From positions 16,926,001 through 16,990,000 of the forward strand of contig OZ024762.1 of assembly GCA_964016885.1 (NCBI GenBank): a stretch of DNA of 64,000 bases, read 5' to 3'. The position numbers and the translations under genes are program-made. This stretch comes from Eledone cirrhosa. Lineage: Eukaryota. Positions 1-63,910 of this stretch are shown one piece after another. Each line of letters starts with the position of its first letter. Within the stretch, counting starts at the first letter, position 1. The notes under the pieces were generated by a model. That model saw only the letters and a program-made list of their open reading frames with translations, was not told where the DNA came from and searched no databases.

Positions 1-362
1 GAACTAATATAGTTCAATACCAGATGTAATATCTACTAAAATGGAGAAATAGTTTAATACCAGATGTAATGTCCATTTAATACCAGATGTAATCTTCAGT
101 AAAATGGAGGACTAAGATAGTTTAATACCAGCTGTGATAATAATTTAATACCAGATATAATGTCCATTTAATACCAGATGTAATCTTCAGTAAAATGGAG
201 GACTAAGATAGTTTAATACCAGCTGTGATAATTTAATACCAGATGTAATGTCCATTTAATACCAGATGTAATCTTCAGTAAAATGGAGGACTAAGATAGT
301 TTAATACCAGCTGTGATAATTTAATACCAGATGTAATGTCCATTTAATACCAGATGTAATCT
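1..362. repeat. Tandem repeat, ~88-91 bp unit containing three TTTAATACCAG sub-repeats
   Basis: AAAATGGAGG recurs at 101, 192 and 280; TTTAATACCAG recurs within each unit. Confidence 0.85.
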
Positions 363-445
363 CTAGTTAGAAAAAATAAGGAAGTCTGTTTTCTCAAGGG
401 AGTCAAACTAAAGAAAACATTGATAAATAAAGAGAAAATATTTTT

Positions 446-760
446 TTGTTGTTGTTTGTGGTGGTGGGGATGGTGGGGATATTGGTGGTGGTGGTAGTGG
501 GGATATTGGTGGTGGTGGTGTTGGTGATGTTGGTGGTGGGGATGGTGGTAGTGGTGGTGGTGGGGATATTGGTGATGGTAGTGGTGGTGGTAGTGGGGAT
601 GGTGGGGATATTGGTGTTGGTGGTGGTATGATAGGCTGGTTGTGGTGATGTTGATGGTGTTGGTGGTGGTGGTGGTGGGGGGGGGGGGGGGGGGGGGGGG
701 GTTGCTGATGGTAGTGGTGGTGGTGGTGATGCTGGTGGTGTTGTTGTTGTTGGTGCCGGT
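446..760. repeat. GGT/GTT low-complexity microsatellite with poly-G run
   Basis: Direct inspection. Confidence 0.9.
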
Positions 761-1482
761 AGTATGCTGGTGTTGTACTATAGACAGGTAGATACCAAAT
801 ATGTATACTGTTATTAAAACCTTCCACCATAATACAGGTCAACCTTATCACACTGAATCTCCCTGAGAACTTCTATAGACACACATGGATGTGAAATGTT
901 CAACCACTTGTATATTAAATGGAACTGATTGCAGTATATACACATACACTCACACACACATACATATACACACATATATATATATATATACACACACACA
1001 TATACACGCACATACACACACACCCACATGTCTGTGGAATACTCAGCCACTTACACATTAATGACATGAACAGGCTGTTGTATTGTTTGAACACATGGTA
1101 CACTCATTGTTAGAAGCAACAGTAGTACAACAACAACAACAATAACCCCCCCCCCCCCAATAAACCCAACAACAACACCATCACCACCATCAAACCACTA
1201 CCACCCACAACATCACCAACACCAACACAACAACAACACCACCGACACCACCAACACAACAACACCGACACCACCAACACAACAACAACACCACCAACAC
1301 CACCACCAACACCCACAACAACAACAACATATCTATTATCACCAATCACATCTGTCTCCTTCTTGTAAAAATTATTATTTCTGTATTAACCAATCAGAAG
1401 CCAGTATTATGGGAAATGTTGTCAATATGTTGAAAAAAGAAAATCTCAGATCAATTTAAAAGGTCAATTTTCCTTCTATAGT

Positions 1483-2093
1483 CTTCCTGTCCTTGTATCA
1501 ACCTATAGGTCAACTTCTCCCCATTAGAGTCCTCCAGTCCTTGTATCAACTTATAGGTCAACTTCCCCCTATTAGAGTCCTCCTGTCCTTGTATGTACTT
1601 ATAGGCCAACTGATCCCTACTAGAGTCCTCCTGTCCTTAGCTCAACTTATAGGTCAACTGATCCCTACTAGAGTCCTCCTGTCCTTAGCTCAACTTATAG
1701 GTCAACTGATCCCTGCTAGAGTCCTCCTGTCCTTAGCTCAACTTATAGGTCAACTGATCCCTGCTAGAGTCCTCCTGTCCTTAGCTTAACTTATAGGTCA
1801 ACTGATCCCTGCTAGAGTCCTCCTGTCCTTAGCTCAACTTATAGGTCAACTGATCCCTGCTAGAGTCCTCCTGTCCTTAGCTCAACTTATAGGTCAACTG
1901 ATCCCTGCTAGAGTCCTCCTGTCCTTATCTCAACTTATAGGTCAACTGATCCCTGCTAGAGTCCTCCTGTCCTTAGCTTAACTTATAGGTCAACTGATCC
2001 TGCTAGAGCCCTCCTGTCCTTAGCTCAACTTATAAGTCAACTGATCCCTGCTAGAGTCTTCCTGTCCTTAGCTCAACTTATAGATCAACTGAT
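1483..2093. repeat. 48-bp tandem repeat, ~12 copies
   Basis: Unit CTAGAGTCCTCCTGTCCTTAGCTCAACTTATAGGTCAACTGATCCCTG; the ORF repeats every 16 aa. Confidence 0.92.
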
Positions 2094-2211
2094 CTCATTC
2101 AATATCAATTTTCAACATAAACACATACAAACACACAAACACTCAACACATACACAGTTACAAACACATACAAACACACACAACCACCACAACACACACA
2201 CATACTTAATA

Positions 2212-2468
2212 AGCTGCCAAGAAAATTGAGAGATCTGGATGGTGTAGACGTGGATGTTTTCTTCAAGAAACATCGTGACACCCTTGCTATCCAGGATCCT
2301 GGATGAACCCACAGCACGGTACGAAGGTAACCCAAGGGCAGCAACAATGAACTCCCTCCTACACCAATGGCCAGCCAACACAGGCTGGAGATAGAACATG
2401 TAGCAACAAGGGCGGTGCCCCAACATGGCCTCAGCCAGATGGTTGGAACAGGTAAAAGAGTAAAAGGG
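2212..2468 (+). mobile_element. 3' remnant of a CR1/L2-like non-LTR retrotransposon
   Basis: Degenerate translation LPRKLRDLDGVDVDVF...LLSRILDEPT...RAATMNSLLHQ resembles LINE ORF2 C-termini; ends in an AAAAGAGTAAAAG tail. Confidence 0.5.
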
Positions 2469-2472
2469 TATC

Positions 2473-2640
2473 CAGGTAAAATACCATTATAACGAATTTT
2501 TCAGTATAACATTTTTTCAATCCCCGAGGTAATAACAAACAAACGCTCGATTTGTTTCGGTCAATCTCGTTAGAAAGAATTTTACGTTACAACAAATTTT
2601 TTTTATACACCTTGAATTTCATTATAACAGAATTTTACTG
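2473..2640. mobile_element. Degenerate pogo/Tigger-like MITE
   Basis: Imperfect TIRs CAGGTAAAATACCATTATAAC / ATTATAACAGAATTTTACTG followed by TA. Confidence 0.5.
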
Positions 2641-2786
2641 TATATATATGTATATATATATGTGTGTGTTTATACATACATACACATATATATATAGTAA
2701 TAATAATAAATTTGAAGACTAAAATCCAAAGTTTCAGAAGATCCCGTTAAGGGTGAAAGCAGTGATTCTTTGCTTAAACTTTAATC

Positions 2787-3508
2787 TGTTATTTTAATAA
2801 ATATATATATATATGTGTGTGTGTGTGTGTTTATACATATATACATATATATATGTAGATAAATCTACCAAAATATACGGTAGTGTCCAATCCGTATGAA
2901 GAACTCAATGTAATCCAGATATAGAAGATATCATGAAAAGAGAAGATACATTCAAAAATTTACGATAAAAGTCATAGGAAAACAGTCAAGATAATTTGTG
3001 TGTGTGTGTGTTTATACATATATATGTGTGTGTGTCTGTTTATATATATATACTAGCCAAATCACCCGCGCCCTGCTGCGTTTCACACATTTTTTTTGAA
3101 AGAAAATGATGATTGATTTTAAATCAGTGATATAATTTACTCAATGTAAAATGTAATGCAAGAAAAAATGGAAAACATTATTCTTTGTAATATATCAAAT
3201 CAAAATTACATTATTAAATCTTATTCTTATTTTGTTTCTTGTAAATAATGTTTTTCAAAATATCAATTCAAAACTTTTGTGAATAGGCATCATATCTTGT
3301 CATTTACCTATGACTTTTATCGTAAATTTTTGAATGCATCTTCTCTTTTCATGATATCTTCTATATCTGGATTATATTGAGTTCTTCATACGGATTGGAC
3401 ACTACCGTATATTTTGGTAGATTTATCTACATATATATATGTATATATGTATAAACACCCACACACCCACACACACACACACACATACATATATTTATTA
3501 AAATAACA
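2787..3508. repeat. Inverted duplication with ~200-bp arms (2787-2993 and 3293-3508)
   Basis: AGATAAATCTACCAAAATATACGGTAGTGTCCAATCCG... is reverse-complemented at ~3307-3430, along with the flanking microsatellite and TGTTATTTTAATAAA. Confidence 0.9.
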
Positions 3509-3703
3509 TTTCATATAAATCAAAGGGAAAACATTTTCAGCATGAGTTTGTGCCCCCAGGGAACCCTTTGATTAAAATTAAATATACTTATCCAAGTACC
3601 CTGGGCAATGTAGTTTCAGAATATATATGGTTATAGGGGTCTATCTCCAAAACCATATAAGGAGTTTGTGAACAAACAAACAGGAATACAACTTTATATA
3701 TAT
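3052..3703 (-). mobile_element. Non-autonomous Helitron-like element
   Basis: Minus-strand 3' end is GC-rich CGCAGCAGGGCGCGGG followed by CTAG|T; minus-strand 5' end is TATATATAAAG...(GTTT)n; the terminal TC is not clearly preserved. Confidence 0.45.
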
Positions 3704-3770
3704 TTCTATATATGTGTGAGTGTGTGTTTATATATATATATTTCTATATATGTGTGTGTGTGTGTGTGTT

Positions 3771-3801
<31 letters not shown>

Positions 3802-3849
3802 TTATATATATATATGTGTGTGTGTGTGTTTATATATATATATTTACAC

Positions 3850-4311
3850 ACACCTCTCCAAGACAATGTCACTGGACCGAGATCTTTGGCGCTACACATT
3901 AATACAAAAGACCCGCCTTGCCTAAGTACAAAGCGAAACCTACAGTCAGTAGGCACCTCTTAACCAAATATACACCCCCATCCCACTACCCCTACTCCAC
4001 CAACACCACCCCTTTCTCTGTAAAGTTATGTTGGTACCACAACATCCAGTCCTAAATAAATGAGGTCGTGTAGGTGTCACGACAAAAAAACACACAGTCC
4101 ACGCTGTAATGTGGCCGTGTAGGTAACACGGTAAAAACCTCCCAGTCCACACTGTAAACGTGGTTGGTGTTAGGAAGGGCATCCAGCCGTAGAAAACCTG
4201 CCAGATAGTCCTATACGACCAAGACGACCAATCTTGCCCCAACTGGGATCATTCCCGTCTAAACCCATGCTAGCGAGGAAGATAGACGTTAAACAATGAT
4301 GATGATGATGA
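3850..4311 (+). mobile_element. RTE ORF C-terminal remnant fused to SINE-type central domain and (GAT)n tail
   Basis: Translates as SKTMSLDRDLWRYTLIQKTR, then GGTTGGTGTTAGGAAGGGCATCCAGC domain and GACGTTAAACAATGATGATG tail. Confidence 0.6.
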
Positions 4312-4505
4312 TCATCATCATCGTTTTACGTCCGTTCTTCCACGCTAGCATGGGTTAGACGGGTTGTCCTGTTGTGGGCAGTGTCTGGTCGGCTGACCAT
4401 GCCTTGCTCATACAGGAACTGATTTGGCTTGATTTCTACAGCTGGATGCCTTTCCTAACACCAACCTCATTTACAGTGAGTGCTGGGTACTTTTTTTCCG
4501 TGGCG
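4312..4505 (-). mobile_element. SINE/RTE-tail element, tail-to-tail with the previous copy
   Basis: Reverse complement of the same tail and central domain. Confidence 0.75.
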
Positions 4506-4839
4506 CCTATATGTGTTTTCAAAGAAACTTATATATACTGTAACAAGATAGGGTGAAGATACAGGGTGGTGTGTGTGTGTGTGTAGGTGGGGGGGGGGGG
4601 TGAAGATACAGGGAGAACAGGCAGGGTGGGGTGGGGGCTTTACCTAATTCTTGGTCCACAGTATGATACAAGTTCTCGAATATTTAATGTAAAATACACA
4701 TGAAAGATTTTTCAAAACTTTTTAACATTTGTTGATAACTGATATTCGAGACTATATAATCTTCCCCTCTTCCCATGGAAAATTCTATTTTTAAAGAATA
4801 TCTTTAAATGTTGCAGCTTGTTAAGACTACTTGTAGCAA

Positions 4840-4990
4840 AGGTGTGGAGATGTAGCGTGGCTAAATGGTTAAGGGGTTTCGTTCGCAATCATGATGTCCA
4901 CGGTTCAATCCCACTGTATGGCATCTTGGGCAAGTGTCATTTGCTATAGCTTCAAGTCGACCCATGCCTGTTGAATAAGATTTGGTAGAG
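4840..4990 (+). mobile_element. tRNA-headed SINE, 5' part
   Basis: A-box-like TGGCTAAATGG, B-box-like GGTTCAATCCC, followed by CTTGGGCAAGTGTC. Confidence 0.6.
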
Positions 4991-5215
4991 TTAACCCTTT
5001 AGTATTTACATTACTCTATATATACTATTGTATTTTCATGGTAAAGGCTTTACCTCACATAATATCTCACATAACATTTACATTGCTCTATATATACTAT
5101 TGTATTTTCATGGTAAAGTCTTTACCTCACATAATATCTCACATAACATTTACATTGCTCTATATATACTATTGTATTTTCACAATAAAGGCTTTACCTC
5201 ACATAACATATACAT

Positions 5216-6169
5216 TTGTACCTTGAGATAAAAAGGACAGATCCTGAACACTATAGATCTTGCCTGCAATCAGACCTGGACACAATGCAGCAATGGATCA
5301 CTGACTGGCAACTCAAGCTAGCTGTGGACAAGTGCACCACCATGCATTTTGGGAGTAAAAACCCAGTGTCCACATACTCCCTCCACAACTCTAATATCAA
5401 GAAGTCTTATTGTGAACATGACCTGGGCATTACTGTCAGCAGCGATTTGCGTTGGACGAAGCACGTCTCTAAAATTGTCAAGAAGGCCGAGAGTGTGTCT
5501 TAGTATCAATCAGCAAGACCTTTGTCAGCTGCTCTCCAGCTATCTATTTAAAGCTGTACATAGCTATGGTGCAGCCACACTTAGAATTTGCATCACCAGT
5601 CTGGAACCCCTATCTTGCTCAGAACATTGACCGCCTGGAAACTGTTCAGAGACGTGCAACCAAGCGAATACCCTCCATCAGGCATCTACCATACTCTGAG
5701 CGCCTTGCTTCCCTGGGCATGGATACATTGAAGCTCCGACGTCTGGCAACTTACTTGGTAAACACCCACAAAATTGTTAACCATGTTGCCAACAACAACC
5801 CTGAGTACCTTTTTGATCTCCATGTGTCTAACACACGTGGGCATGCCCACAAAGTCAGAAAACAGCACAGTTCCCATGACTTTCGGAAACATTTTTTCAC
5901 GCTCAGAGTTGCTGAAGCATGTAACAAACTACCAGCATCAGTTATTAGATGTTGAGACACTGCATCCTTTAAAACCTCCATGCTTCCTGAGATTCGCCTA
6001 CACTACACCTAATATTCCCCCTCCATACACATACACACATGTATATCATGACTCATCCACTATTCACTTCCCTGACATTTGTATATTATTCTATGTTCTA
6101 TACATGCACCTTTGACGAGTTGTAGTGCACCTGAGCACTGTACACAATAATTTCATTATTATTATTATT
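5216..6169 (+). mobile_element. 5'-truncated CR1-clade LINE (RT C-terminal region, 3' UTR and (ATT)n tail), interrupted by a stop codon
   Basis: LQSDLDTMQQW..W.L.LAVDKC..MHFG, DLGITVSSDLRW..HV, PHLEFASPVWNPY, LETVQRRATK, RKHFFTLRV..CNKLP. Confidence 0.9.
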
Positions 6170-6411
6170 ACTCTATATATACTATTGTATTTTCACAGTA
6201 AATGCTTTACCTCACATAATATCTCACAACATTTACATTACTCTATATATACTATTGTATTTTCACAGTAAAGGCTTTACCTCACATAATACCTCACACA
6301 TTACTCTAGATATACTATTGTATTTTCATGGTAAATACTTTATTTCACATAATTACCTCACATGATATTGAATCTGTGAGATTTTGATGTTATTTATTTT
6401 GAGAACAATAC

Positions 6412-7680
6412 AGCTCACAAGAAATGACAGAGCTATGATCCTCTAGATGTGTGGTGTGAACACTGAGGATAATGTCAGCTCAACTGAGCTCCTGAAAAGA
6501 CTCCTGATCAATGACCTTGAGGATGTGGTTCACATGAGTCACATGTGCTGGTAAGGTCATGTTGAGTGTAGCGAGGGCTGGAAGATGCTGGTACGGCCAT
6601 GTTGAGTGTAGCGAGGGCTGGAAGATGCTGGTACGGCCATGTTGAGTATAGCGAGGGCTGGAAGATGCTGGTATGGTCATGTTGAGTGTAGCGAAGGCTG
6701 GAAGATGCTGGTACGGCCATGTTGAGTGTAGCGAGGGCTGGAAGATGCTGGTATGGTCATGTTGAGTGTAGCGAGGGCTGGAAGATGCTGGTATGGTCAT
6801 GTTGAGTGTAGCGAGGGCTGGAAGATGCTGGTATGGTCATGTTGAGTGTAGCGAGGGCTGGAAGATGCTGGTATGGTCATGTTGAGTGTAGCGAGGGCTG
6901 GAAGATGCTGGTATGGTCATGTTGAGTGTAGCGAAGGCTGGAAGATGCTGGTATGGTCATGTTGAGTGTAGCGAGGGCTGGAAGATGCTGGTATGGTCAT
7001 GTTGAGTGTAGAGAGGGCTGGAAGATGCTGGTATGGTCATGTTGAGTGTAGCGAGGGCTGGAAGATGCTGGTATGGTCATGTTGAGTGTAGCGAGGGCTG
7101 GAAGATGCTGGTATGGTCATGTTGAGTGTAGCGAGGGCTGGAAGATGCTGGTATGGTCATGTTGAGTGTAGCGAGGGCTGGAAGATGCTGGTATGGCCAT
7201 GTTGAGTGTAGCGAGGGCTGGAAGATGCTGGTATGGCCATGTTGAGTATAGCGAGGGCTGGAAGATGCTGGTATGGTCATGTTGAGTGTAGCGAAGGCTG
7301 GAAGATGCTGGTACGGCCATGTTGAGTGTAGCAAGGGCTGGAAGATGCTGGTACGGCCATGTTGAGTGTAGCAAGGGCTGGAAGATGCTGGTACGGCCAT
7401 GTTGAGTGTAGCAAGGGCTGGAAGATGCTGGTACGGCCATGTTGAGTGTAGCAAGGGCTGGATCAACATAACGATGAATGTTACTCCAGGAAGACCAAAA
7501 AGGACTTGGATGAAGGATGTCCGTCGGGATCAAGCTAGGCTTGGCCTGGCCCAAGTGAGACCGGTGGACAGAAACATAAGGAGTGGGAGGGACACTAAGG
7601 AGCACTGTCAGGCAGGGCCCACCCCTACTTTGGGATTAATAGTGTCCTGTATAATAAAAAAAATGGATGATGATGATGGT
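6412..7680 (+). mobile_element. RTE LINE 3' remnant containing a 40-bp tandem array (~23 copies, 6545-7460)
   Basis: RNDRAM..MCGV...CWYGHVE...GRPKRTW..DVRRD; unit GTTGAGTGTAGCGAGGGCTGGAAGATGCTGGTATGGTCAT. Confidence 0.8.
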
Positions 7681-7904
7681 GACCCTAACATCAGTATCAG
7701 TGGCCAGCGACCAGTTTCAATAGAAAGAGGTGAGAGAATTCTGGCCGGATATGGCCGGTTTAAGTGCTAAAGGGTTAAGGGGAGACTATTTGAAATCTCA
7801 CAGCCAATGGACTAGACTGGACCGTACAAGTAATTCAAATGACCAGCATTGTTGCATACTGGGTCATACTAAATCTCCCTGAGAATAACATAACGGATAC
7901 TTGT

Positions 7905-8257
7905 ATTTTCCTGGACATGTTGACAGATATAAACAATTTTCCTGGACATGTTGACAGATATAAACAATTTTCCTGGATATGTTGACAAATATAAACAATT
8001 TTCCTGGACAGGTTGATAGATGTAAACAATTTTCCTGGACATGTTGACAAATATAAACAATTTTCATGGACATGTTGACAAGTATAAACAATTTTCATGG
8101 ACATGTTGACAAATATAAACAATTTTCCTGGACATGTTGACAGATATAAACAATTTTCCTGGACATGACAAATATAAACAATTTTCATGGACATGTTGAC
8201 AAGTATAAACAATTTTCATGGATATGTTGACAAGTATAAACAATTTTCCTGGATATG
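7905..8257. repeat. 31-bp tandem repeat, ~11 copies
   Basis: Unit TTTCCTGGACATGTTGACAGATATAAACAAT. Confidence 0.9.
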
Positions 8258-8375
8258 TCGCCATTTCCTAACCACTGCTGGGAAGATACTTCAGCTGACA
8301 CAGTGCTGGTGCCATGATAAAATCCATACAGCAGAGTGTAGGCATTTTTGGGGGGACACTCTATATATACATGAT

Positions 8376-10074
8376 ATCATCATCATCATCATTTTTTTAC
8401 GTCCGCTTTTCCCTGCTTGCAAGGGTGGGACGGGTTTTATTCAGCACAGCATCTCTCCACTTGTCACGGTCCTTCGTCATCTCCACCGTGAGCTTCAGCG
8501 ATCTGAGGTCTGTTCTCACCACCTCCGCCCATGTTTTTTGTGGTCTACCTCTACCACGTCTTCCTTCAACTGGCATTTCCTGGCACCTCTTCACCCATCG
8601 GTCATCCTCCATGCACATCACATGTCCATACCACCTCAGTCTGCTCTCTCACACACATTCATGCTGGGTCGTTCACGCACATTGACATTGCACATCCAAC
8701 GGAGCATGCTTGCCTCATTTCTCTCCAGCCGTCGCATATCCTCTGCAGTTGCTGCCCATGTCTCAGTACCATGCAGCATCACGCTCCTCACACAGGCATC
8801 ATATAACCAGCCTTTCGTATGCAGGGAGAAACCCTTCTTCAGCAGCCGAGGAAGCAGCTCCCTAAACTTCTTCCAACCCGTCCTTATTCTAGATACTATG
8901 GCCTTGAAACACCCCTCTCCCATGCTAATCTGATCTCCTAGGTACTGGAAGCTATCCACCACTTCTATAGCACCCGCCTGCATTTGAAAAATGTTTCTAT
9001 CAATGCGACTTCTACTCTCTAATTTCCCTGTACATCTACCGCATACGTATTTCTCCCTACCTGCTAGTTTGCCTGCTATCCCACTACATCTCTTGTGTAC
9101 CCAGGATCTGCATTGTGTACATTTTATAGAATTTATGCCAGTTCCTTTTCTGCATATCGAACATGGCCATTTCCCTGACGGAATCAGAGTTTTGTCCTCT
9201 TTTCTACTCATCAACACTTTTGTCTGAGCTAGGTTCACTCTCAGTCCTCTTGCTTCCAACTGCTGCTTCCATAGCCAGAATTGATGTACTCCTACTTGTA
9301 TCTGGAATTCCTCCTCACTAAACTCCATTCCTACCCTGACTTTACTGACAGCACCTCTGTACAAAGTTTGCACTGTCCTCACAAGCCATTCCTCAACACC
9401 TAGTTTCCTTAGGGACCACCAGATGACAGATCGAGGTACCCTATCAAAGGCCTTCTCTAGGTCAACAAAGGCTAAATATAGTGGTTTATTTTTCTCTAAG
9501 AACCTCTCTTGTAATTGTCTCACCAAGAAGTGGGCATCTGTTGTACTCTTCCCAGGCACAAAACCAAACTGCATCTCATCTAGTTTGACCCTTTCTCTAA
9601 TTAGTTGTGCTAATATCCCTTCTGCCACTTTCATAACTTGATCCATCAGTTTTATACCCCTATAATTGCTCCTCTCCAGAGCATTCCCTTTACCTTTGTA
9701 GCAATTTATGAGAATACTGCTGCACCAGTCTTTGGGTATGACACCACCATATATAGCCTGATTGATGATGCATGCAACCAGTTTAGTGCCTACGTCCCCT
9801 GATGCCTTCAGCATCTCAGCAACTATCCCTGATGGTCCAGCAGCCTTACCGTTTTTCATTTCCTTAATCGCCTCTTGGACCCTATATTCGTCAATCTCAA
9901 TAGCTGGTCCCTCTGTCGGATCTACTGAGGGTAATTTCTCTCTCTCCCATTCGTTCTCCACATTCATCAGTCTCTCATAATGACATTTCCAGGCCTCCTT
10001 TTTCTGATCATTCGTGACACTAAGTAAACCGGCATCATTCCGGACACATTTATCTCCAACAACATCCTGATTTG
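8376..10074 (-). mobile_element. 5'-truncated RTE-clade LINE; RT ORF 8636-9967 with internal deletion and a PHD-like Cys/His cluster
   Basis: Motifs [60 protein letters not shown]; (GAT)n tail. Confidence 0.93.
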
Positions 10075-10194
10075 CATTAGTTTTATACCCCTATAATTGC
10101 TCCTCTACAATATATATATATATATATATATATATACATTATATCATTTCATTTCATTTCATTTTCATTTCATTTTCATTTCATTTTCATTTCA

Positions 10195-10520
10195 TTTTAT
10201 GTCCGCTTTTTCCCTGCTTGCAAGGGTGGGATGGGAACTGATTCTGGCTTGATTTCTACAGCTGGATGCCCTTCCTAACACCAACCTCATTTACAGTGAG
10301 GGCTGGGTGCTTTTTTGCCATGGCACCTCCACGTCCACTTTGCAGTGGAATGATAGGGACCCCAGTCCCTATCATCTCATTTCTACAGCTGAGTAAACTG
10401 GAGCAATGTGAAATAAAGTGTCTTGCTCAAGGAAACAACACATCACCCGGTCTGAGAATTGAACTCACAACCTTTCGATTGCAAGGCCAATGCTCTAACC
10501 ACTAAGCAATGTGCCTCCTA
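10195..10520 (-). mobile_element. Full-length tRNA-derived SINE with RTE-type tail (family A)
   Basis: Minus-strand head GGAGGCACATTGCTTAGTGGTTAGAGC...GAGTTCAATTC; tail CCCACCCTTGCAAGCAGGGAAAA..GGAC.TAAAATG matches the RTE end at 8376-8435. Confidence 0.85.
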
Positions 10521-10590
10521 TTGGCAACCAGCCCACTCGCCGTAAGGCACCAATCACATTCTTTCTGACTTGACCACTGCCACGTCACAG

Positions 10591-10748
10591 TTCTTAACCA
10601 TTTTGAATTCGTTTCTGGCGGGGATCATTTAAGAAAAATCTTCGTCCAAGTGAGTTTGTTTCCTGATGATTTCGAAGCTCGAGAATTTTTCCTTGATAAG
10701 ATATTCCCAAAAGCGAATGAAACCCTAAGGGGTAGAAATGTAATCCTG
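10591..10748 (+). CDS. Candidate coding exon (LNHFEFVSGGDHLRKIFVQVSLFPDDFEAREFFLDKIFPKANETLRGRNVIL), possibly DUF4062-like
   Basis: CAG acceptor at 10588-10590, open frame, GTATGT donor at 10749; phase-compatible acceptor TTTCTCCATAG ending at 10917. Confidence 0.3.
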
Positions 10749-11039
10749 GTATGTTTATATACATTTTTTCTTCTAACTTTAATTTTATACCTAATTCTGT
10801 ATGGTTGACGATATATTTAATCGATTTCTACGTGCATTTGAAATGCTGGGTAAATATTCTATAGCTGTTGATCGCGAATAGATGGCTGTCGTTTATTTAT
10901 CTATTATTTCTCCATAGGTGCCTTTTAATCTTATAGCCTGGTTTAATTGTTTTTTTGTGTGGTTGATTATGCTAATTGGGAGAGGAAATGGAGTATATAT
11001 CTTATCAAATGATTCTATGGACATAATTTATAGTATATA

Positions 11040-11385
11040 TCATCATCACCGTTTTACGTCCGTTCTTCCACGCTAGCATGGGTTAGACGAGTTGTCCTAT
11101 TGTGGGTAGTGTCTGGTCGGCTGACCATGCCTTGCTCATACAGGAACTGATTTGGCTTGATTTCTACAGCTGGATGCCTTTCCTAACACTAACCTCATTT
11201 ACAGTGAGTGCTGGGTGCTTTTTTGTGGCGCCTACACGTCCACTTTACAGTGTGGGCTGGGTGCTTTTTTGCCGTGGCACCTCCACGACCACCTTGCAGT
11301 GGGGTGTGTGGAGGCATATTGTCTATATGCTTCAGCTTGTACCCATGGGAGGTCGGGTACTCTGTATTACTGCGTGACGCCATGA
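11040..11385 (-). mobile_element. Retroposon with RTE-derived head, SINE central domain and (GAT)n tail
   Basis: Near-identical to 62135-62487; minus-strand head TGGCGTCACGCAGTAATACAG resembles the RTE ORF end (WRHAVIQ). Confidence 0.7.
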
Positions 11386-11723
11386 TCATGTCTCGAGCTA
11401 TCTGCCGGCGAAACAATTGTAACACGCAATAAACTGAGTCCAGATGCATCACTGATTTTTCGTTTTTTTATACTATCCACACTCTACTCTGTATGAATAT
11501 TGAGTGCTAATTTTGGCATACTGCCTGTGGAAGCACAATAGCTACCATTATACACAAGTATATATATATATATATATGTATATACACATATATGTATCTA
11601 TATATCTATACAAACAGCCTTATGAACACCATGTGGTGTATATAAGACTGTTTGCTTCCAGACAAACCGAATATTAATAATATTATATTATTATAATACT
11701 GTTGTTATCCACTCATAAATATA

Positions 11724-11902
11724 TTTAGGTAACCACCATGGTAAGAGTGAAAACAAATTTTGTTTTATATATATATATATATATATATAGTAATAATAAT
11801 AAATTTGAAGACTAAAATCCAAAGAGGGCTCGATAAGGATAAATATATATCAAATATATAAAACAAAATTTGTTTTCACTCTTAGCATGGTGGTTACCTA
11901 AA
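11724..11902. repeat. Inverted repeat with 49-bp arms (one mismatch)
   Basis: TTTAGGTAACCACCATGGTAAGAGTGAAAACAAATTTTGTTTTATATAT at 11724-11772, reverse-complemented at 11854-11902. Confidence 0.85.
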
Positions 11903-12019
11903 AAAAAAATATATATATATATACACATACACCTCATCAAAGGACACATGGAGATATATATATATATATATAAATACCGATGATGGTTGGAAGATCACTG
12001 ATGAAGGACCACTTTATTC

Positions 12020-12113
<94 letters not shown>

Positions 12114-12116
<3 letters not shown>

Positions 12117-12431
12117 GACATAGAATATTCGAAAATATTCTGTATGTTTATAATAAACATTTTGAAGACCTAATCGCTATAGAATAGAATACGTCACGTA
12201 TTACAATTAGATTCTCGATAAAAGCAAGGGAAGTAACCTACGCGTTTCATTCTTATTAGAAATCTTCAGGATTACATATCCAGTGCTTTTATCGAGAATG
12301 ACACAGCTAGAGACTTATAGAATACTTAGCTGTGTACAGGAACTGGTTTGACGTATTCTATTCTATAGCGATTAGGTCTTCAAAATGTTTATTATAAACA
12401 TACAGAATATTTTCGAATATTCTATGTCTAT
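12114..12431. mobile_element. Foldback element with perfect 83-bp inverted arms, nested 16-bp stem and internal hammerhead
   Basis: 12114-12196 is the exact reverse complement of 12349-12431; inner IR 12211-12226/12284-12299; hairpin 12301-12335. Confidence 0.8.
12233..12275 (-). ncRNA. Minimal type-I hammerhead ribozyme (PLE/retrozyme type)
   Basis: Minus strand reads GTAATC-CTGAAGA-T.TTCT.AATA.AGAA.T-GAAA-CGCG-TA-GGTTAC; 6-bp stem I, 4-bp stem II, palindromic ACGCGT stem III, GUA cleavage triplet. Confidence 0.75.
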
Positions 12432-12463
12432 CTTCACATATATATCGCTATTTCAGAGCATTT

Positions 12464-12527
<64 letters not shown>

Positions 12528-13349: not shown

Positions 13350-13513
13350 CATGGGGTTATATATATATATATACATATATATAGTAATAACAATAAAATT
13401 GAAGACTAAAATCCAAAGAGGGCTCGATAAGGGTGAAAACAGCGATTCTTTGCTTAAACTTTAATCTGTTATTTTAATAAATATATATATATATATATAT
13501 ACAGACATGGGGT

Positions 13514-13789: not shown

Positions 13790-14160
13790 ATATATACCCA
13801 CACCTCAGTAAAAGGTGTGGGTATATATATATATATATATATATACCCACACCTCAGTAAAAGGTGTGGGTATATATATATATTTATATACCCACACCTC
13901 AGTAAAGGTGTGGGTATATATATATATATATATACCCACACCTCAGTAAAGGTGTGGGTATATATACATATATACCCACACCTCAGTAAAAGGTGTGGGT
14001 ATATATATATATATTTATATACCCACACCTCAGTAAAGGTGTGGGTATATATACATATATATATACCCACACCTCAGTAAAGGTGTGGGTATATATATAC
14101 CCACACCTCAGTAAAAGGTGTGGGTATATATTTACCCACACCTCAGTAAAAGGTGCGGGG
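13790..14160. repeat. Array of 9 palindromic hairpin units separated by (TA)n
   Basis: Unit TATACCCACACCT-CAGTAA(A)-AGGTGTGGGTATA. Confidence 0.9.
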
Positions 14161-30345: not shown

Positions 30346-30416
30346 TATATTTTATCTGACGAGGACGTACTGAAAAAACAGCACAGTACCTTCGAAATAT
30401 ATATAATAAAACATAT
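30346..30416 (+). ncRNA. Type-I hammerhead ribozyme motif, C-C mismatch family, copy 1
   Basis: TATATTTTAT-CTGACGA-GGACGTACTG..loop..CAGTACCTTC-GAAA-TATATA-TA-ATAAAACATA. Confidence 0.7.
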
Positions 30417-31359: not shown

Positions 31360-31429
31360 TATACTTTATTATATATATTTCAGAGGTACTGTGTTGTTTT
31401 TTCAGTACGTCCTCATCAGACAAAATATA
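31360..31429 (-). ncRNA. Type-I hammerhead ribozyme motif, copy 2
   Basis: Minus strand TATATTTTGT-CTGATGA-GGACGTACTG..CAGTACCTCT-GAAA-TATATA-TA-ATAAAGTATA; 10-bp stem I including two G-U pairs. Confidence 0.75.
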
Positions 31430-31871: not shown

Positions 31872-33186
31872 CGAGGTGTGTCAGAAAGATTCCAAGACTG
31901 ATGTCACAAAAGATTTATTTCAAACCCAAACTTCACACTAAGAGTTTTCTCCTTCAAAGTAATCCCCCTGGAGTGTGTAACTGTAATCTTAGCTCTCTGT
32001 AGCGATCAAACATTTTTCTTCATAATTTTATATACATGTCATTTATATGATGCCTGTGTGAGGAGCGCGATGCTGCATGGTAGTGAGACATGGGCAGCAA
32101 CTGCGGAGGATATGCGACGGCTGGAGAGAAATGAGGCAAGCATGCTCCGTCGGATGTGCAGTGTCAATGTGCGTGAACGACCCAGCATGAATGTGTTGAG
32201 AGAGAAACTGTGTCTGAGAGCGATAGAAGACTGAAGTGGTATGGACATGTGATGCGCATGGAGGTTGACCGATGAGTGAAGAAGTGCCAGATGAAGGAAG
32301 ACGTGGTAGAGGTAGACCACGAAATACATGGGCGGAGGTGGTGAGAACAGACCTCAGATCACTGAAGCTCACTGTGGAGATGACGAAGGACCGTGACAAG
32401 TGTAGAGATGCTGTGCTAAATAAGACCCACCCACCCTTGCAAGCATGGAAAAGCGGACGTAAAATGATGATGATGATGATGATGATGTCCTCTGTTTCAA
32501 GTCGTCAAGCGATGAGCACAGAGCAACGAACAAACTTGAAAACTCCGTCAGAAGCACTGGGATTGCTGCAGCAAGTGTATGGAGATGAGACGATGTCACG
32601 TTCACGTGTTTTTGAGTGGTGCAAGATGACCCCAGGAGCGGAAGGCCCTCAACAACCAGGACTGAGGTCAACGTTGAGCGCGTCAGGCAGATGGTGCGTA
32701 GCGATCGTCGGCTGACCGTTCGACTGATGGCAAATGAGCTGGGCATGAATCAGGACAGCGTCTGGAAGATTCTCACTGAAGATTTGGACATGCGAAAAGT
32801 CTGAGCGAAGATGGTGCCAAAACTGCTGAACGATGACCAGAAGGGTCGACCTATGCAAGTGTGCCAGGACATCCTCGAGCATTCTTGAAACCGAACCAGA
32901 CTTGCTAGGGACAGTCATCATCGGTGATGAGTCATGGATCTTCGAGTACGACCCGGAGGGGACCCGTTTTGAAGACGTGGACGACATCAAAAAGGCTGTG
33001 ACGACGGAACTGCGGAGGATCCCGGAAGAATTCTTCCAGGAGTGCATGCAAGCGTGGCAGAAAAGGGTGGAAAAGTGCATTAGACTCCAGGGGGATTACT
33101 TTGAAGGAGAAAACTCTTAGTGTGAAGTTTGGGTTTGAAATAAATCTTTTGTGACATCAGTCCTGGAACTTTTCTGACACACCTCG
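31872..33186 (+). mobile_element. Internally deleted mariner transposon with ~103-bp TIRs and TA target duplication
   Basis: TA|CGAGGTGTGTCAGAAA ... TTTCTGACACACCTCG|TA; transposase fragments DDPRSGRPST, DRRLTVR, MVPKLL, GDESWIFEYDPE, KCIRLQGDYFEG. Confidence 0.93.
32040..32487 (+). mobile_element. RTE 3' fragment nested in the mariner
   Basis: LYDACVRSAMLHGSETW...RGRGRPRNTW...(GAT)n; ATGTC on both flanks. Confidence 0.88.
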
Positions 33187-33234
<48 letters not shown>

Positions 33235-33236
33235 TC

Positions 33237-33959
33237 ATAGGCAGGGACTACCCTGCATCACTAATTGACAATGGAATCCAACGTGCCCTAAAACTCAGTA
33301 CCCAGGACCTTAGACACCCTAAAGTAAATCAACCGAAACTAAAAGCTCTTCCATACATCTCCACACACAACCCCCTCAACAATGAGGCCTTTGACACCAT
33401 CCTCCAGAACATCCCTGTGTTAAAAAAGGACCATAGAATGAACCAAATCCTTCGAACACACGATATCATAAAGAGCAAAAGACAATCTAAGTCAATGAAA
33501 AACATCCTAACACATGCCAAAGTACTGCCAACCACAACAACGAAACCCACAGTAAAAAAATGCGACAGACCCAACTGTGGCATATGCATCAACCTAATAG
33601 AGGGTTCGGAATTCTATTTCAAAGAAGGACAACGTTTTATTGTAAAACACAATTTCACATGCGCATCAGAAAATCTAATATATGTATTAACTTGCTCAGG
33701 TTGTCGAGAACAATACATAGGCCAGACCAAAAACAGCCTCCGCCAACGCATGACTGTCCATAGATCCCAAATTAAAATACGGGAATACAGGAAAATACCA
33801 CTGAGTGAACACATTGATACCTGTGCCGCCCAAAATCATCCCAACTTTAGAATCTTTCCCCTTTACAAATTTAAAGATAATGCCACCCACACCCAGCGCA
33901 TCAGCAAGGAATCTCACTTTATTAACAAATACGGACCCCGTCTAAACACTTCTTCCTAA
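33237..33959 (+). CDS. Penelope-like element ORF C-terminus: Cys linker plus GIY-YIG endonuclease (5' truncated)
   Basis: LPYISTHNP, KKCDRPNCGIC, NLIYVLTCSGCREQYIGQT..LRQRMTVHRSQI, E..FI.KY.P.LN. Confidence 0.9.
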   Translation: MGRDYPASLIDNGIQRALKLSTQDLRHPKVNQPKLKALPYISTHNPLNNEAFDTILQNIPVLKKDHRMNQILRTHDIIKSKRQSKSMKNILTHAKVLPTTTTKPTVKKCDRPNCGICINLIEGSEFYFKEGQRFIVKHNFTCASENLIYVLTCSGCREQYIGQTKNSLRQRMTVHRSQIKIREYRKIPLSEHIDTCAAQNHPNFRIFPLYKFKDNATHTQRISKESHFINKYGPRLNTSS

Positions 33960-35207: not shown

Positions 35208-35459
35208 TCATCATCATCATCTTCGTTTAATGTCCATCTTCCGTGCTAGCATGGGTTAGACGGGAGTTGTCCCACTTGAGGCAAGGTTGGTCGGGTGACC
35301 GTGTCTCGCTCATATAGGACTATCTGGCAGGTTTTCTATTAGGTAGTCCTATATGAGCGAGACATGGTCTCCCAACCAACCTTGCCTCAAGTGGGACAAC
35401 TCCCGTCTAACCCATGCTAGCGTGGAAGATGGACGTTAAACGAAGATGATGATGATGAT
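35208..35459. repeat. Hairpin made of two inverted SINE-tail copies (~118-bp arms, 15-nt loop)
   Basis: 35208-35325 versus 35341-35459, near-perfect reverse complement. Confidence 0.88.
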
Positions 35460-40636: not shown

Positions 40637-41745
40637 TTAACTATATAGCTTTTACATTACTCCTTATTTATTATTGTATTTTCATGGTAAACACTTTACC
40701 TCACATAACATTTATATTACTCTATAATTATTATTGTATTTTCATGGTAAACACTTTACCTCACATAACATTTATATTACTCTATAATTATTATTGTATT
40801 TTCATGGTAAACACTTTACCTTACATAATTATCTCACATAACATTTACATTACTCTATATATACTATTGTATTTTCATGGTAAAGCTTTATCTTACATAA
40901 TTATCTCACATAACATTTACATTACTCTATATATACTATTGTATTTTCACAGTAAAGGCTTTACTTTACATAATATCTCATAATATTTACATTACACTAT
41001 ATATACTATTGTATTTTCATGGTAAAGGCTTTACCTTACATAATATCTCACATAACATTTACATTACTCTATATATACTATTGTATTTTCACAGTAAAGG
41101 CTTTATTTTACATAATATCTCATAACATTTACATTCCACTATATATATTATTGTATTTTCATGGTAAACACTTTACCTCACATAATATCTCACATAACAT
41201 TTACATTACTCTATATATACTATTGTATTTTCACAGTAAAGGCTTTATTTTACATATCTCACATAACATTTACATTACTCTATATATACTATTGTATTTT
41301 CATGGTAAAGGCTTTACCTTACATAATATCTCACATAACATTTACATTACTCTATATTTACTATTGTATTTTCATAGGAAAGGCTTTATTTCACATAATT
41401 ATCTCACATAATATTGAATCTGTGAGATTTTGATATTATTTATTTTGAGAACAATACATTAACCCTTTAGCATTTACATTATAAATATACTATTGTATTT
41501 TCTTGGTAAAGGCTTTACCTCACATAATATCTCACATAACATTTACATTACTCTATATATACTATTGTATTTTCACAGTAAAGGCTTTACCTCACATAAT
41601 ATCTCACATAACATTTACATTACTCTATATATACTATTGTATTTTCACAGTAAAGGCTTTACCTCACATAATATCTAACATAACATTTACATTACTCTAT
41701 ATATACTATTGTATTTTCATGGTAAAGGCTTTATTTCACATAATT
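40637..41745 (+). mobile_element. piggyBac-like MITE remnants with expanded 60-72-bp internal tandem
   Basis: Unit CACATAACATTTACATTACTCTATATATACTATTGTATTTTCATGGTAAAGGCTTTACCT...; new TTAACCCTTTAG start at 41459. Confidence 0.75.
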
Positions 41746-42123
41746 CAGCCTCATCACTATTTAGCATCCGTTTTTCCATGCTTGCGTAGGTTAGACTGAT
41801 CATCCAGAACTGGCCACACCATACCTTGCTCCTATGAGGACTGTAAGGATGGCCAAGGATTTTACAACTGAGAACTCTGAGATACTATATTCAAATATCT
41901 ATATTTTTAACTGTTGGTCAATCAATGACAAACATTGATTGCCAGCTGAATTATTTATAGAAATATAAAATATACTGAAGTGAAAACGAAACGAAACAGT
42001 GAGTGTGTTTTACTATATTTCTGGCAATATTATAACATGCCCCTCCCCATGTATAACAAAAAAATATACTGAAGCGAAAACCAAATCAAATGGTGAGTGT
42101 GTTTTATTATATATTTCTGGCAT

Positions 42124-42995
42124 TTAACCCTTTAATGTTCAAACCAGCCAAATCCAGCCAGAATTCTCTACCTCTTTCTGTTGAAACTGGCTGTAACTGG
42201 CCACGCATACTGATGTTAAGGTATTGTTCTCAAAATAAACAATATCAAAATCTCAGATTCGATATTATGTGAGATAATTATGCGAGGTAAAGCCTTTACC
42301 ATGAAAATATAATAGTATATATAGAGTAATGTAAATGTTATGTGAGATATTATGTGAGGTAAAGCCTTTACCATGAAAATATAATAGTATATATAGAGTA
42401 ATGTAAATGTTATGTGAGATATTATGTGAGGTAAAGCCTTTACCATGAAAATATAATAGTATATATAGAGTAATGTAAATGTTATGTGAGATATTATGTG
42501 AGGTAAAGCCTTTACCATGAAAATATAATAGTATATATAGAGTAATGTAAATGTTATGTGAGATATTATGTGAGGTAAAGCCTTTACTATGAAAATATAA
42601 TAGTATATATAGAGTAATGTAAATGTTATGTGAGATATTATGTGAGGTAAAGCCTTTACCATGAAAATATAATAGTATATATAGAGTAATGTAAATGTTA
42701 TGTGAGATATTATGTGAGGTAAAGCCTTTACCATGAAAATATAATAGTATATATAGAGTAATGTAAATGTTATGTGAGATATTATGTGAGGTAAAGCCTT
42801 TACCATGAAAATATAATAGTATATATAGAGTAATGTAAATGTTATGTGAGATATTATGTGAGGTAAAGCCTTTACCATGAAAATATAATAGTATATATAG
42901 AGTAATGTAAATGTTATGTGAGATATTATGTGAGGTAAAGCCTTTACCATGAAAATATAATAGTATATATAGAGTAATGTAAATGCTAAAGGGTT
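42124..42995 (-). mobile_element. piggyBac-like MITE with ~10 near-identical 72-bp internal repeats
   Basis: TTAACCCTTTA at 42124 and TGCTAAAGGGTT at ~42984-42995; period of 72 (42301, 42373). Confidence 0.85.
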
Positions 42996-46584: not shown

Positions 46585-46651
46585 TATATTTTGTCTGATG
46601 AAAACATACTTAAACACCATGGTACCTTTGAAATATGTATAATAAAATATA
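46585..46651 (+). ncRNA. Type-I hammerhead ribozyme motif, copy 4
   Basis: TATATTTTGT-CTGATGA-AAA.C.ATAC..GTAC.C.TTT-GAAA-TATGTA-TA-ATAAAATATA. Confidence 0.7.
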
Positions 46652-53238: not shown

Positions 53239-53266
53239 AACGTTTCGGACGCTAGTCCCTCATCAG
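53239..53266 (-). ncRNA. Minimal hammerhead core with weak stem I
   Basis: Minus strand CTGATGA-G.GGAC.TAGC.GTCC-GAAA-CG-TT. Confidence 0.5.
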
Positions 53267-53536: not shown

Positions 53537-53871
53537 TTGAAAAAGTGGAGAATAACATGGTCAACAGTACAAAAAAGGGGATTTATGTGCAGTCTAACAA
53601 TTGTTTCACTGATAGAGCTGTCCAAAAATTGCTGAACACTAAAAACAGTGCCACTCAATTTTAAATACGATGTTAACTCTATTAGATCTTCAGAAACTGA
53701 GAGTTAACATCGTATTTAAAATTGAGTGGCACTGTTTTTAGTGTTCAGTAATTTTTAGACAACTCAGTGAAACAATTGTTAGACTACAAATAAATCCCCT
53801 TTTTTGTACTGTTGCCCATTTTATTCTCCACTTTTTCGTACTGTTGACCATTTTATTCTCCACTTTTTCAA
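53537..53871. mobile_element. Foldback element with ~145-bp arms and a 19-nt loop
   Basis: 53537-53680 versus 53700-53871; a ~32-bp terminal segment is duplicated in the right arm. Confidence 0.85.
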
Positions 53872-61507: not shown

Positions 61508-61690
61508 ATGTCTCTCCACCACTCCCCTACACACCTTTTGAACTCTGTTCCCACACACTTCTCACCTGAAGAAGGGCTTATGCCCGAAACGTCCCCCCCC
61601 CCCCCCCCCACTCTCCTGAGAGTGAATTTAATAAACATTTATCGTACTGCCTCTCTGTTCTGTCCCTGTTCAATTTTTCATTATACATAT
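61508..61690 (+). mobile_element. PLE pseudo-LTR-like repeat with a minimal hammerhead core (~61566-61593)
   Basis: CTGAAGA-A.GGGC.TTAT.GCCC-GAAA-CG-TC; inverted copy at 63730-63910. Confidence 0.65.
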
Positions 61691-61789: not shown

Positions 61790-62990
61790 TTGTTATATTT
61801 TGCCCATTTGGTTCTAGCTCCTTTATATACCCTGATCTTGTCTCCCTGATTATAGCCAGAGAACTGTATGTGGTGGATGAAGTGTTGTGTCTCTCTAATT
61901 ATTTAGGGTTGCACATGCAGGACCCCATTCGTCATCACTCTTACTAAATCCGCAACTAGTATATTGATTTTTATGTTATCCAAAACTGCAGAGTTTTGGT
62001 GAATCAGGCATTTGGAGATGATGGGTTTGGCATAATGCAAATGGAGGATTTGTGTTCTATTACAAATAGTTTCCAACAAGAGTTCTGTGTCTAGTATGGG
62101 TAATCTATGGTTGGGGTGTTTAGCTAGGTAGTCTCATCATCATCACCGTTTTACGTCCGTTCTTCCATGCTAGCATGGGTTAGACGGGTTGTCCTGTTGT
62201 GGGCAGTGTCTGGTCGGCTGACCATGCCTTGCTCATACAGGAACTGATTTTGGCTTGGTTTCTACAGCTGGATACCCTTCCTAACACCAACCTCATTTAC
62301 AGTGAGTGCTGGGTGCTTTTTCGTGGCGCCTACACGTCCACTTTACAGTGTGGGCTGGGTGCTTTTTCTGCCGTGGCATCTCCACGACCTCCTTGCGGTG
62401 AGGGGTGTGGGGGCATGTTGTCTATATGCTTCAGCTTGTACCCATGGGAGGTCGGGTACTCTGTATTACTGCGAGACGCCAGTTTATAGTAACTTTAATA
62501 CTCTGGTGGATGGAGTTAGCTATTTGCTGGATACTTTCCATGGTGTTCTTCTTTAATTCCTGACTGTTCTCCTGTGGGGGGTGGTTTTACTACAATATTT
62601 ATGTCATCTATGTGGCAGGAGTACATAGTCAGGGTTATAAAATCCTCATCTAAGCATTCCTTAAGTCTCCTGTCCCACCTTACCATAAAGAGGTGAGCTA
62701 TGTCACCTGCAACGCTGATGCCAATGGCTGCCCCCTCCTCTTGAGCATATATTTTGCCATTAAACTTAAACATATGTTCCTTAAGGGTTAGTTTTATATT
62801 GGTCCCCACCGCATGTGCAAACATTTTCTTTACTTCATTGTGGTTTTCGGGGGTCCGTATGGCTCTGGTCCACCCTCTCCACCTTTTTGTGTGGGTCTTC
62901 TTGGCCATTGAGATAATGGTCTTATGGGGGCAGAGGCAGCTAAGGTCGTCTGTATCTAAGTAAACCTTCCTTACCCTGTGTAATTCTAAG
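61790..62990 (-). mobile_element. Penelope-like RT remnant (possibly Naiad-like), split by a retroposon at 62135-62487
   Basis: HMFKFNGKIYAQEEGAAIG...DIAHLFMVRWD...HIDDIN; TMESIQQIANSIHQSIKVTI then DY..KHPNHRLPILDT...HYAKP...KINILVADLVR...QFSGY. Confidence 0.8.
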
Positions 62991-63729
62991 TAGGAGCCCC
63001 AAAGACGTTAATTTTGCTGTAGAAAAAGGCGAAAGGAAAACAGAAAAAGAAAAAGGAAAATATGATAAAAAGCAAAATACGAAGAAAAAGAAGCAAAAAG
63101 GAAGACGATTTATAGTGACCCCCCCTCCCCCAAGAAAAAAACTTTAGCTCTAACAGCAGACGTTAAAGGGGAGATAATTCAGCAAATACAACCATTCAAT
63201 TGTGTGTGTGTGTGTGTGTGTTCCTGGCGATAAATATAAAATATTTGATAATATACGAAATAAAAACAACAGAAAATACAACGTACAATATACCTGGTAT
63301 ATAATATACTAGGTGTATAATATACCCGGTGTATAATATACTAGTGTATAGTAAACCCGGTATATAATATACCCGGTGTATAAAAACCCGGTGTATAATA
63401 TACTGGTGTATATGTATATATTTCATGGAGACACTCACACTGAGGCAATTTAATGTTCCATTATAAATATCAATCGCTTGCCAGAAAAAACATCACCGGT
63501 TATTGTTTAACCCTAGGTCAACTTTAATCCAGTAGACCTATGATCAAAAACGTCTAATATATAAATATCCGGTCTTTATAGTATATCGATAAATATTTAA
63601 TTATTTAACGGATCTTTCCTTTTTAAAGACTGTAGGATGTGATTAGTTGGAAATTTGGCTGTTATTTATGGCATATTTAATGATCTTACAGAGCATATAT
63701 ATGTATATATATATATATAGATAGATATA

Positions 63730-63910
63730 TAATGGAAAAATTTGAACAGGGACAAAACAGAGAGGCAGTACGACAAATGTTTATTAATTTCTCGCTCTGG
63801 AGAGTGGGGTGTAGGTGGGGGACGACGTTTCGGGCATAAGCCCTTCCTCAGGTGAGAAGTGTGTGGTAACAGAGTTCAAAGGGTGTGTAGGGGAGTGGTG
63901 GAGAGACATA
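63730..63910 (-). mobile_element. PLE pseudo-LTR-like repeat with a minimal hammerhead core (~63824-63851)
   Basis: Minus strand CTGAGGA-A.GGGC.TTAT.GCCC-GAAA-CG-TC; a further related copy appears to begin at ~63972. Confidence 0.65.

Follow-up and report, generated by a model that had tools for sequence, protein, structure and literature searches.

A 5'-truncated, partly inverted copy of a hammerhead-bearing repeat, likely a non-LTR retrozyme, in a TA microsatellite of Eledone cirrhosa

The insertion described here lies in a 64,000-nt stretch of the Eledone cirrhosa genome (hereafter the window) and is best read as a 5'-truncated copy of a 310-nt unit joined to an inverted piece of the same unit within a TA microsatellite. 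We regard the unit as a likely non-LTR retrozyme of high copy number whose inversion here likely arose as Penelope-like enzymes inserted it, and give this reading a probability of roughly 0.78. The rod-like, viroid-like shape of the locus is a by-product of one insertion and not a new system, and with its single ribozyme the locus is likely a dead-end insertion. A first-pass annotation of the window had proposed a non-coding, mobile ribozyme element that is possibly moved by the enzymes of Penelope-like elements (PLEs) and is a candidate for an undescribed system; the non-coding nature and the hammerhead motif stand, the element is multi-copy and movement by PLE enzymes is likely, but the undescribed system does not survive.

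Anatomy of the locus

Most of the architecture reported in the first-pass annotation is present in the sequence. The inverted arms (12114-12196 and 12349-12431) are 100% complementary, at 83 of 83 positions, with 152 nt between them, and both a perfect 16-bp stem and a 9-bp hairpin are found inside them. No ATG open reading frame longer than 48 aa overlaps the 318-nt stretch, in line with the claimed lack of coding capacity, and the left end is indeed next to a TG/TA microsatellite (Table 1). When the 318 nt are folded together they are predicted to form a rod of -173 kcal/mol (z -24.9), with none of 100 shuffles equally stable; the sense 240 nt folded alone give a chain of hairpins (z -5.8), not a rod. 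There is no second copy of the element within the 64-kb window.

The right boundary, previously drawn at 12431, shifts to about 12471 because 12432-12471 is family sequence. The resulting 38-40-nt extension is comparable in size and place to the 'tail' of PLE insertions as presented in the available text of PMC8557442 and PMC3846280. At the opposite end, TA letters blur the 3' end of the sense piece over 12112-12116, and the TA repeats that form both flanks would mask any target site duplication. Sequencing reads of the family cross the 16-bp stem without loss of depth, and the four variants listed for this stem all replace A by G opposite U; a 3-bp helix and a bulge here prolong stem I of the hammerhead. 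The 9-11-bp hairpin has no variants listed at the 2% threshold. The 14 letters at 12197-12210 were considered as a repair filler and rejected, being native and present in 3773 reads.

Table 1. Coordinates of the insertion, its internal features and its flanks, in window positions
Feature	Positions	Strand	Remarks
Left flank	12023-12113		(TG)42 to 12107, then a few TA units; inferred target microsatellite
Sense piece, 5'-truncated unit copy, ~240 nt	12112-12351	-	Same order as letters 1-238 of X14 record 9
Left arm	12114-12196	-	Native unit sequence that follows the ribozyme
16-bp stem	12299-12284 with 12211-12226	-	Native; span 12211-12299
Type I hammerhead motif	12233-12275 (minus-strand order 12275-12233)	-	Found by descriptor; predicted cut 3' of A12239
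9-11-bp hairpin	12301-12335 (9 bp: 12301-12309/12327-12335)	-	Native, upstream of the ribozyme
Inversion junction	12349-12351		3-nt microhomology TGA, at the loop of a native hairpin
Inverted piece of the 310-nt unit, 123 nt	12349-12471	+	Head to head; first 83 nt are the right arm
Extension, 38-40 nt	12432-12471	+	On the inverted piece only; family-read depth equals that of the arm
Right flank	12470-12525		(AT)28

The 310-nt family and its junctions

Family data were drawn from four (X1, X23, X14 and X4) of 24 listed sequencing runs, aligned on 12197-12474; X1 and X23 belong to one organism (organism A), X14 carries another organism label and X4 is from wastewater. Sixteen further organism labels share 0.32 of the sequence words, and only X14 of these was used. 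A total of 1694 X23 reads at 12351 continue into a linker absent from the window (agreement 0.96), while 3773 reads reach 12349 from letters equal to window 12197-12208 on the other strand, where the depth is about 3900. The joint between 12197 and 12349 on opposite strands occurs in X1 (three contigs), X23 (six reads) and X14. Record 9 of X14, 340 nt long, places the left arm at letters 1-83, window 12197-12351 at letters 84-238, a linker of 32 letters next and window 12471-12402, reversed, at letters 271-340, with an end overlap of 30 letters. This gives a unit of 155+123+32 = 310 nt, arranged head to tail and without long arms. Since reads leave the window path at both 12349 and 12351 into such a unit, the earlier equation of the 318-bp rod with the element itself has to be given up. 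The same linker is found in X1 (five contigs at 12471, two at 12351), X23 and X4. Closure from head to tail, which shows copies longer than one unit, comes from a single contig (X14), with linker ends in agreement in three other runs. No array of two or more ribozymes is spanned by the contigs or reads of the four runs.

Both arms derive from a single, nearly invariant segment, which explains their perfect match. As the X14 contig, from another run, likewise matches the arm at 83 of 83 positions, their perfection says little about age and loses its value as the sign of recent origin or homogenisation for which it had been taken. The unit has a GC content of 0.32 over its 278 known letters and is abundant, being represented by 479 X1 contigs and by 8742 X23 reads with more than 100 start places at variant sites. 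Setting the summed X1 depth of 5e4-5e5 against the 20-27 of each single-junction contig gives a rough 2,000-24,000 copies, summed depth not being copy number. The window copy carries minority letters at six places (12237, 12255, 12265, 12272, 12432 and 12465) and would therefore represent a subfamily or a related species; X14 shows exactly organism A's majority letters at six places. The majority sequence of the family also appears as single contigs in X14 (340 nt, depth 34) and in wastewater run X4 (191 nt, depth 7.5), for which carry-over or food DNA is the simplest cause. Hammerhead pattern scans of metagenome, genome and viral contig collections gave no true match, and one viral pattern match (L001), which has neither stem I nor stem II, was discarded as chance.

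Because the aligned stretch itself contains the inversion, a read that runs on one strand from the ribozyme portion into the arm portion marks another inversion junction. Ten further joints have the window's orientation and different breakpoints; two more joints follow the native path, and one other row joins 12260 with 12232. The junction of the window itself is absent from the joints listed for the four runs. Three of the ten have single-locus support, namely a depth of 20, a depth of 26.9 and 98 reads from one start; the remaining seven, with a depth of about 6 or two to three reads in a chimera-rich library, may be library chimeras. Reads across these extra joints show the junction alone and no second arm. 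Five of the ten keep the whole ribozyme and five cut off part or all of it. Microhomology over the five joints of one joint table sums to 10 nt (P 0.02), and with the window's own junction to 13 nt against 4.7 expected (P 0.007), which chimeras could equally produce.

Ends of the family in flanking repeats recur at 12445, from which 284 X23 reads and 12 X1 contigs run into (AT)n. Sharp X23 ends at 12205 (1133 of 1193) and 12471 (1503 of 1615) resemble element ends, but both fall on AATT. A break at 12261 (259 reads) appears where a variant at 12262 creates a new AATT, and we therefore read these ends as a library restriction site with chimeric ligation, the cutter of the RAD library X23 presumably being an AATT enzyme such as MluCI. 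At the locus the extension measures 38-40 nt; the common read end lies at 12445, and 12471, as a candidate natural end, coincides with a RAD cut site.

Build, variation and predicted folding of the hammerhead

The complete minus-strand hammerhead that the first-pass annotation placed in the loop of the 16-bp stem is found at 12275-12233, with core and helices in type I order. It consists of a 6-bp stem I, CUGAAGA, stem II, GAAA, the palindrome ACGCGU and a GUA site. Stem II begins with a U.U mismatch, has three Watson-Crick pairs above it and is closed by a loop of 6 nt. The sequence predicts a cut between 12239 and 12238, 3' of A12239. The descriptor used here was composed after the motif had been seen and tolerates its mismatched first pair. 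With stem I of at least 6 bp it recovered the motif in none of 20000 shuffles of the 318 nt and with at least 5 bp in two of 20000; none of 60 shuffles of the window contained it. No plus-strand hammerhead was detected in the element by the descriptor, so the motif is present on one strand only, and a possible further hammerhead, read from the arm's plus strand (TTGAAGA...), is rejected by the same descriptor. The Rfam scan that had been suggested yielded a weak match to Hammerhead_HH9, a model from other subfamilies, at 17.1 bits, far below the 52 of its gathering score (E 0.13 when 331 nt were searched); among the best 150 of 262 Rfam rows for the whole window there is no hammerhead match at the locus.

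The ribozyme had been likened to the minimal hammerheads of PLEs. Its helices of 6, 4 and 2 bp, as read from the sequence, are those of the canonical animal type I build and not of the minimal PLE build, by the helix sizes in the available text of PMC4209133. G-C is the conserved first pair of stem II, and most family copies have U.U at this place.

Substitutions present in at least 2% of reads number 23 in 278 letters, and eight of them lie inside the hammerhead. Some of the eight affect position 7 (U, A and C) or loop II; others leave a pair intact through wobble at three sites of stem I, or turn the U.U that opens stem II into A-U. All eight are of a tolerated kind (P about 5.5e-4 given the share of tolerated changes, with variants unphased); three rare insertions at 12230-12236, in about 2-4% of reads, stand outside this score. 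Across the predicted fold of the unit, nine of 12 variants at paired sites keep the pair, against an expected 0.52 for transitions, and two of the three that break a pair sit in a competing fold and are tolerated in the hammerhead fold. A>G changes, scored on the ribozyme strand, exceed U>C changes by 10 to 2 (P 0.01), an excess that fits selection for G.U pairs and A-to-I editing of an RNA template equally well; RNA editing is heavy in cephalopods.

Predicted folding energies count against activity of the monomer, which in the model prefers non-hammerhead folds by 2-5 kcal/mol. The hammerhead fold of the window copy has -27.8 kcal/mol against a minimum of -32.8, worse than the -28.4 against -31.3 kcal/mol obtained with majority letters. 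Two majority-letter hammerheads paired through the palindrome would reach -65.9 kcal/mol compared with -62.6 for two monomers, although the cofold minima (-68.7 kcal/mol with majority letters) beat the double hammerhead by 3-4 kcal/mol. Among frog retrozyme dimers, one of nine cleaved according to the portion of a preprint available to us.

Origin of the insertion and relation to known systems

We posit the following route to the locus, its first part drawn from the retrozyme family and its second from PLE biology. Runs of 310-nt units would be transcribed; the ACGCGU palindrome would let neighbouring hammerheads pair and cleave at GUA, releasing 310-nt monomers that would then be closed into circles. 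A GIY-YIG nuclease would then nick AT-rich DNA, and a reverse transcriptase would start inside the RNA near the arm end and stop early. A second, inverted copy would start 38-40 nt further along and be joined to the first via a short microhomology. Since both arms would come from one template, perfect arms and a one-sided extension are what this mechanism leads one to expect. A bolder version is speculative and rather doubtful. In it the family preserves every step of the retrozyme cycle as fossils: a circular RNA of 310 nt cleaves itself, undergoes A-to-I editing in its long stems and is written by Penelope enzymes into TA microsatellites, with an inverted 5' piece and a tail left at each insertion. 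If true, the A>G excess would reflect editing that became fixed in DNA, and the machinery that moves retrozymes could be read directly from thousands of scars. In a young and abundant family the link between retrozymes and Penelope becomes countable through insertion scars in one assembly, the scars being inverted 5' pieces, junctions with microhomology, TA targets and possibly a tail; the enzymes moving animal retrozymes have so far been argued from co-occurrence and trees, as far as the available literature goes.

The window also holds remnants of PLEs. A GIY-YIG remnant on the plus strand (33144-33959; Pfam PF01541, E 1.9e-6) is preceded by a cysteine motif as in the Neptune and Nematis PLEs of the accessible literature. 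Two pieces in opposite orientation, 61517-61678 (+) and 63737-63900 (-), are 82% identical and end in TA repeats, and each contains a minimal PLE-type hammerhead core, at 61566 (+) and 63851 (-). Between them lies a reverse-transcriptase-like frame (62516-63007, -), which by its motifs we take to be of PLE origin; it has no Pfam or PDB match, and its atlas leads score below 0.9, one of them with RVT_1 on 13% of members. Further CUGANGA...GAAA cores occur at 53266 (-), 55806 (+), 30356 (+) and 31419 (-), 37971 (+) and 46595 (+). The third and fourth of these belong to an inverted pair, 30346-30410 and 31365-31429, of 92% identity, and the core at 46595 passes the descriptor with an 8-bp stem I. 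Together with the other hammerhead-like cores, the GIY-YIG remnant establishes the presence of PLEs in this genome. Between the element and the PLE remnants of the window, whose proteins the first-pass annotation had suggested as a possible mobiliser, no match exceeds 14 letters, so that they do not point to a particular helper.

Other repeats in the window are of several kinds. Positions 53539-53837 form a near-perfect 300-nt palindrome whose short loop contains a minus-strand CUGAAGA with no GAAA after it, possibly another foldback insertion, and a 223-nt palindrome at 35222-35444, with a few mismatches, joins two heads of a common repeat that ends in (ATC)n. A family of about 100 nt has three copies within TA repeats (2690-2790, 11786-11843 and 13380-13480), the second of which is cut short within the loop of an inverted repeat of 49 bp (11724-11772/11854-11902). 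At 13830-14160 a short palindromic unit with TA cores is repeated in tandem, and many Rfam microRNA models match this array below threshold. A 72-bp tandem repeat forms two oppositely oriented blocks within 40645-42988. A 484-aa open frame on the minus strand (8636-10090) carries RVT_1 and a PHD finger and is, we assume, likely a remnant of an RTE-type LINE.

Four other explanations were weighed against insertion of a retrozyme by PLE enzymes. An unlikely one is that the family is a satellite with a hammerhead spread by DNA recombination, the foldback having arisen by template switching during repair or replication, or in assembly, with no part played by PLE enzymes. Hammerhead-free palindromes do exist elsewhere in the window (35222-35444 and 53539-53837), the window's junction is unseen in the four runs and the microhomology is equally expected from repair or from library chimeras. 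However, the dispersed ends into (AT)n at a preferred 12445, the one-sided extension of 38-40 nt and the head-to-head orientation together form the PLE pattern, and the preservation of the ribozyme fold among variants suggests an RNA stage. Improbable, too, is that the stretch is simply a piece of pLTR from an autonomous PLE that was truncated and inverted on insertion. Its architecture would be textbook PLE, PLE remnants are present in the window and opposite-strand hammerhead pairs 100-700 bp apart have been noted in PLE relics in the literature available to us; yet both ends of the unit enter one 32-nt linker and a contig closes at 310 nt, no loose end among those listed leads to an open reading frame, and the helix sizes, judged as above from a part of the literature, depart from the minimal PLE build.

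It is very improbable that the 310-nt unit also exists freely, as a self-replicating circular RNA moving from host to host, with the genomic copies as its relics. The closed X14 contig and the wastewater piece are what such an agent might leave, but a high-copy repeat present as trace DNA, through food or carry-over, would be assembled into exactly this kind of single majority contig, X14 repeats organism A's majority letters at six places, and the hammerhead occurs on one strand only. A distinct and undescribed non-coding foldback with fixed 83-bp terminal arms, for which the perfect arms and the z-score of the rod would speak, is largely refuted by the reads that enter 12349 from other letters and leave 12351 into the linker, by ten differing inversion joints of which five remove part or all of the ribozyme, and by family sequence that goes 39 nt beyond the right arm.

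Insertion of a retrozyme by PLE enzymes, the reading preferred here, draws on likenesses to both groups. According to the available text of PMC8557442 and PMC3846280, PLE insertions comprise an inverted 5'-truncated copy and a 30-40-bp tail and are biased towards microsatellites; in the passages at hand one head-to-head inversion has a 31-bp tail on one inverted pLTR, the tail is the stretch between two reverse transcriptase start sites, and cleavage is at AT-rich DNA. The locus resembles insertions of the endonuclease-bearing PLEs Penelope/Poseidon, Neptune and Naiad, as far as these are described in the same two sources and in PMC11167929, in its 5' truncation, its head-to-head inverted truncated copy, the one-sided extension of 30-40 nt, the AT-rich or microsatellite target and the hammerhead near the end. 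Unlike PLE insertions, the element has no open reading frame, closes on itself at 310 nt and has no sequence match to the PLE remnants of the window. Its ribozyme shares with the minimal PLE hammerhead the type I topology and a short palindromic stem III that is expected to need a dimer, but has none of the longer helix II, shorter helix I, extra base after position 9 and G10.1-C11.1 that mark the minimal form in the text available.

Li, Clavereau and Pollet (bioRxiv 10.64898/2026.07.22.740005) have proposed the same link between retrozymes and PLEs, for Xenopus, where they argue from co-occurrence and from trees of pLTRs; their preprint, in the part available, counts dispersed monomers as well as arrays. 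In its main text, as available, 'tail' does not occur and 'inverted' occurs once, and insertion scars were not met as evidence. A PLE inversion pattern on a retrozyme was not found in print in a search that reached few subscription papers, and no report of a cephalopod retrozyme was found; the supplement of PMC7229834 may bear on the first point and may list an example of the second. The word 'inverted' is absent from the main text of that paper.

The nearest known systems are the metazoan non-LTR retrozymes of Cervera and de la Pena (2020; PMC7229834), in particular the 350-390-bp units of Mytilus galloprovincialis. Like the retrozymes presented in the available text of that study, the unit is non-coding, within 150-450 nt in length (here 310) and below 50% GC (here 32%). 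It likewise has one type I hammerhead with a palindromic stem III and a head-to-tail junction, its predicted fold places the ribozyme at the tip of its own stem, and PLEs are present in the same genome. Unlike those retrozymes, as they are described there, the copy in the window is less than one unit long, has an inverted 5' piece and a one-sided extension, and carries U.U in stem II. By its size, GC content, ribozyme build (as judged from sequence), copy number and head-to-tail closure, the element is probably a metazoan non-LTR retrozyme.
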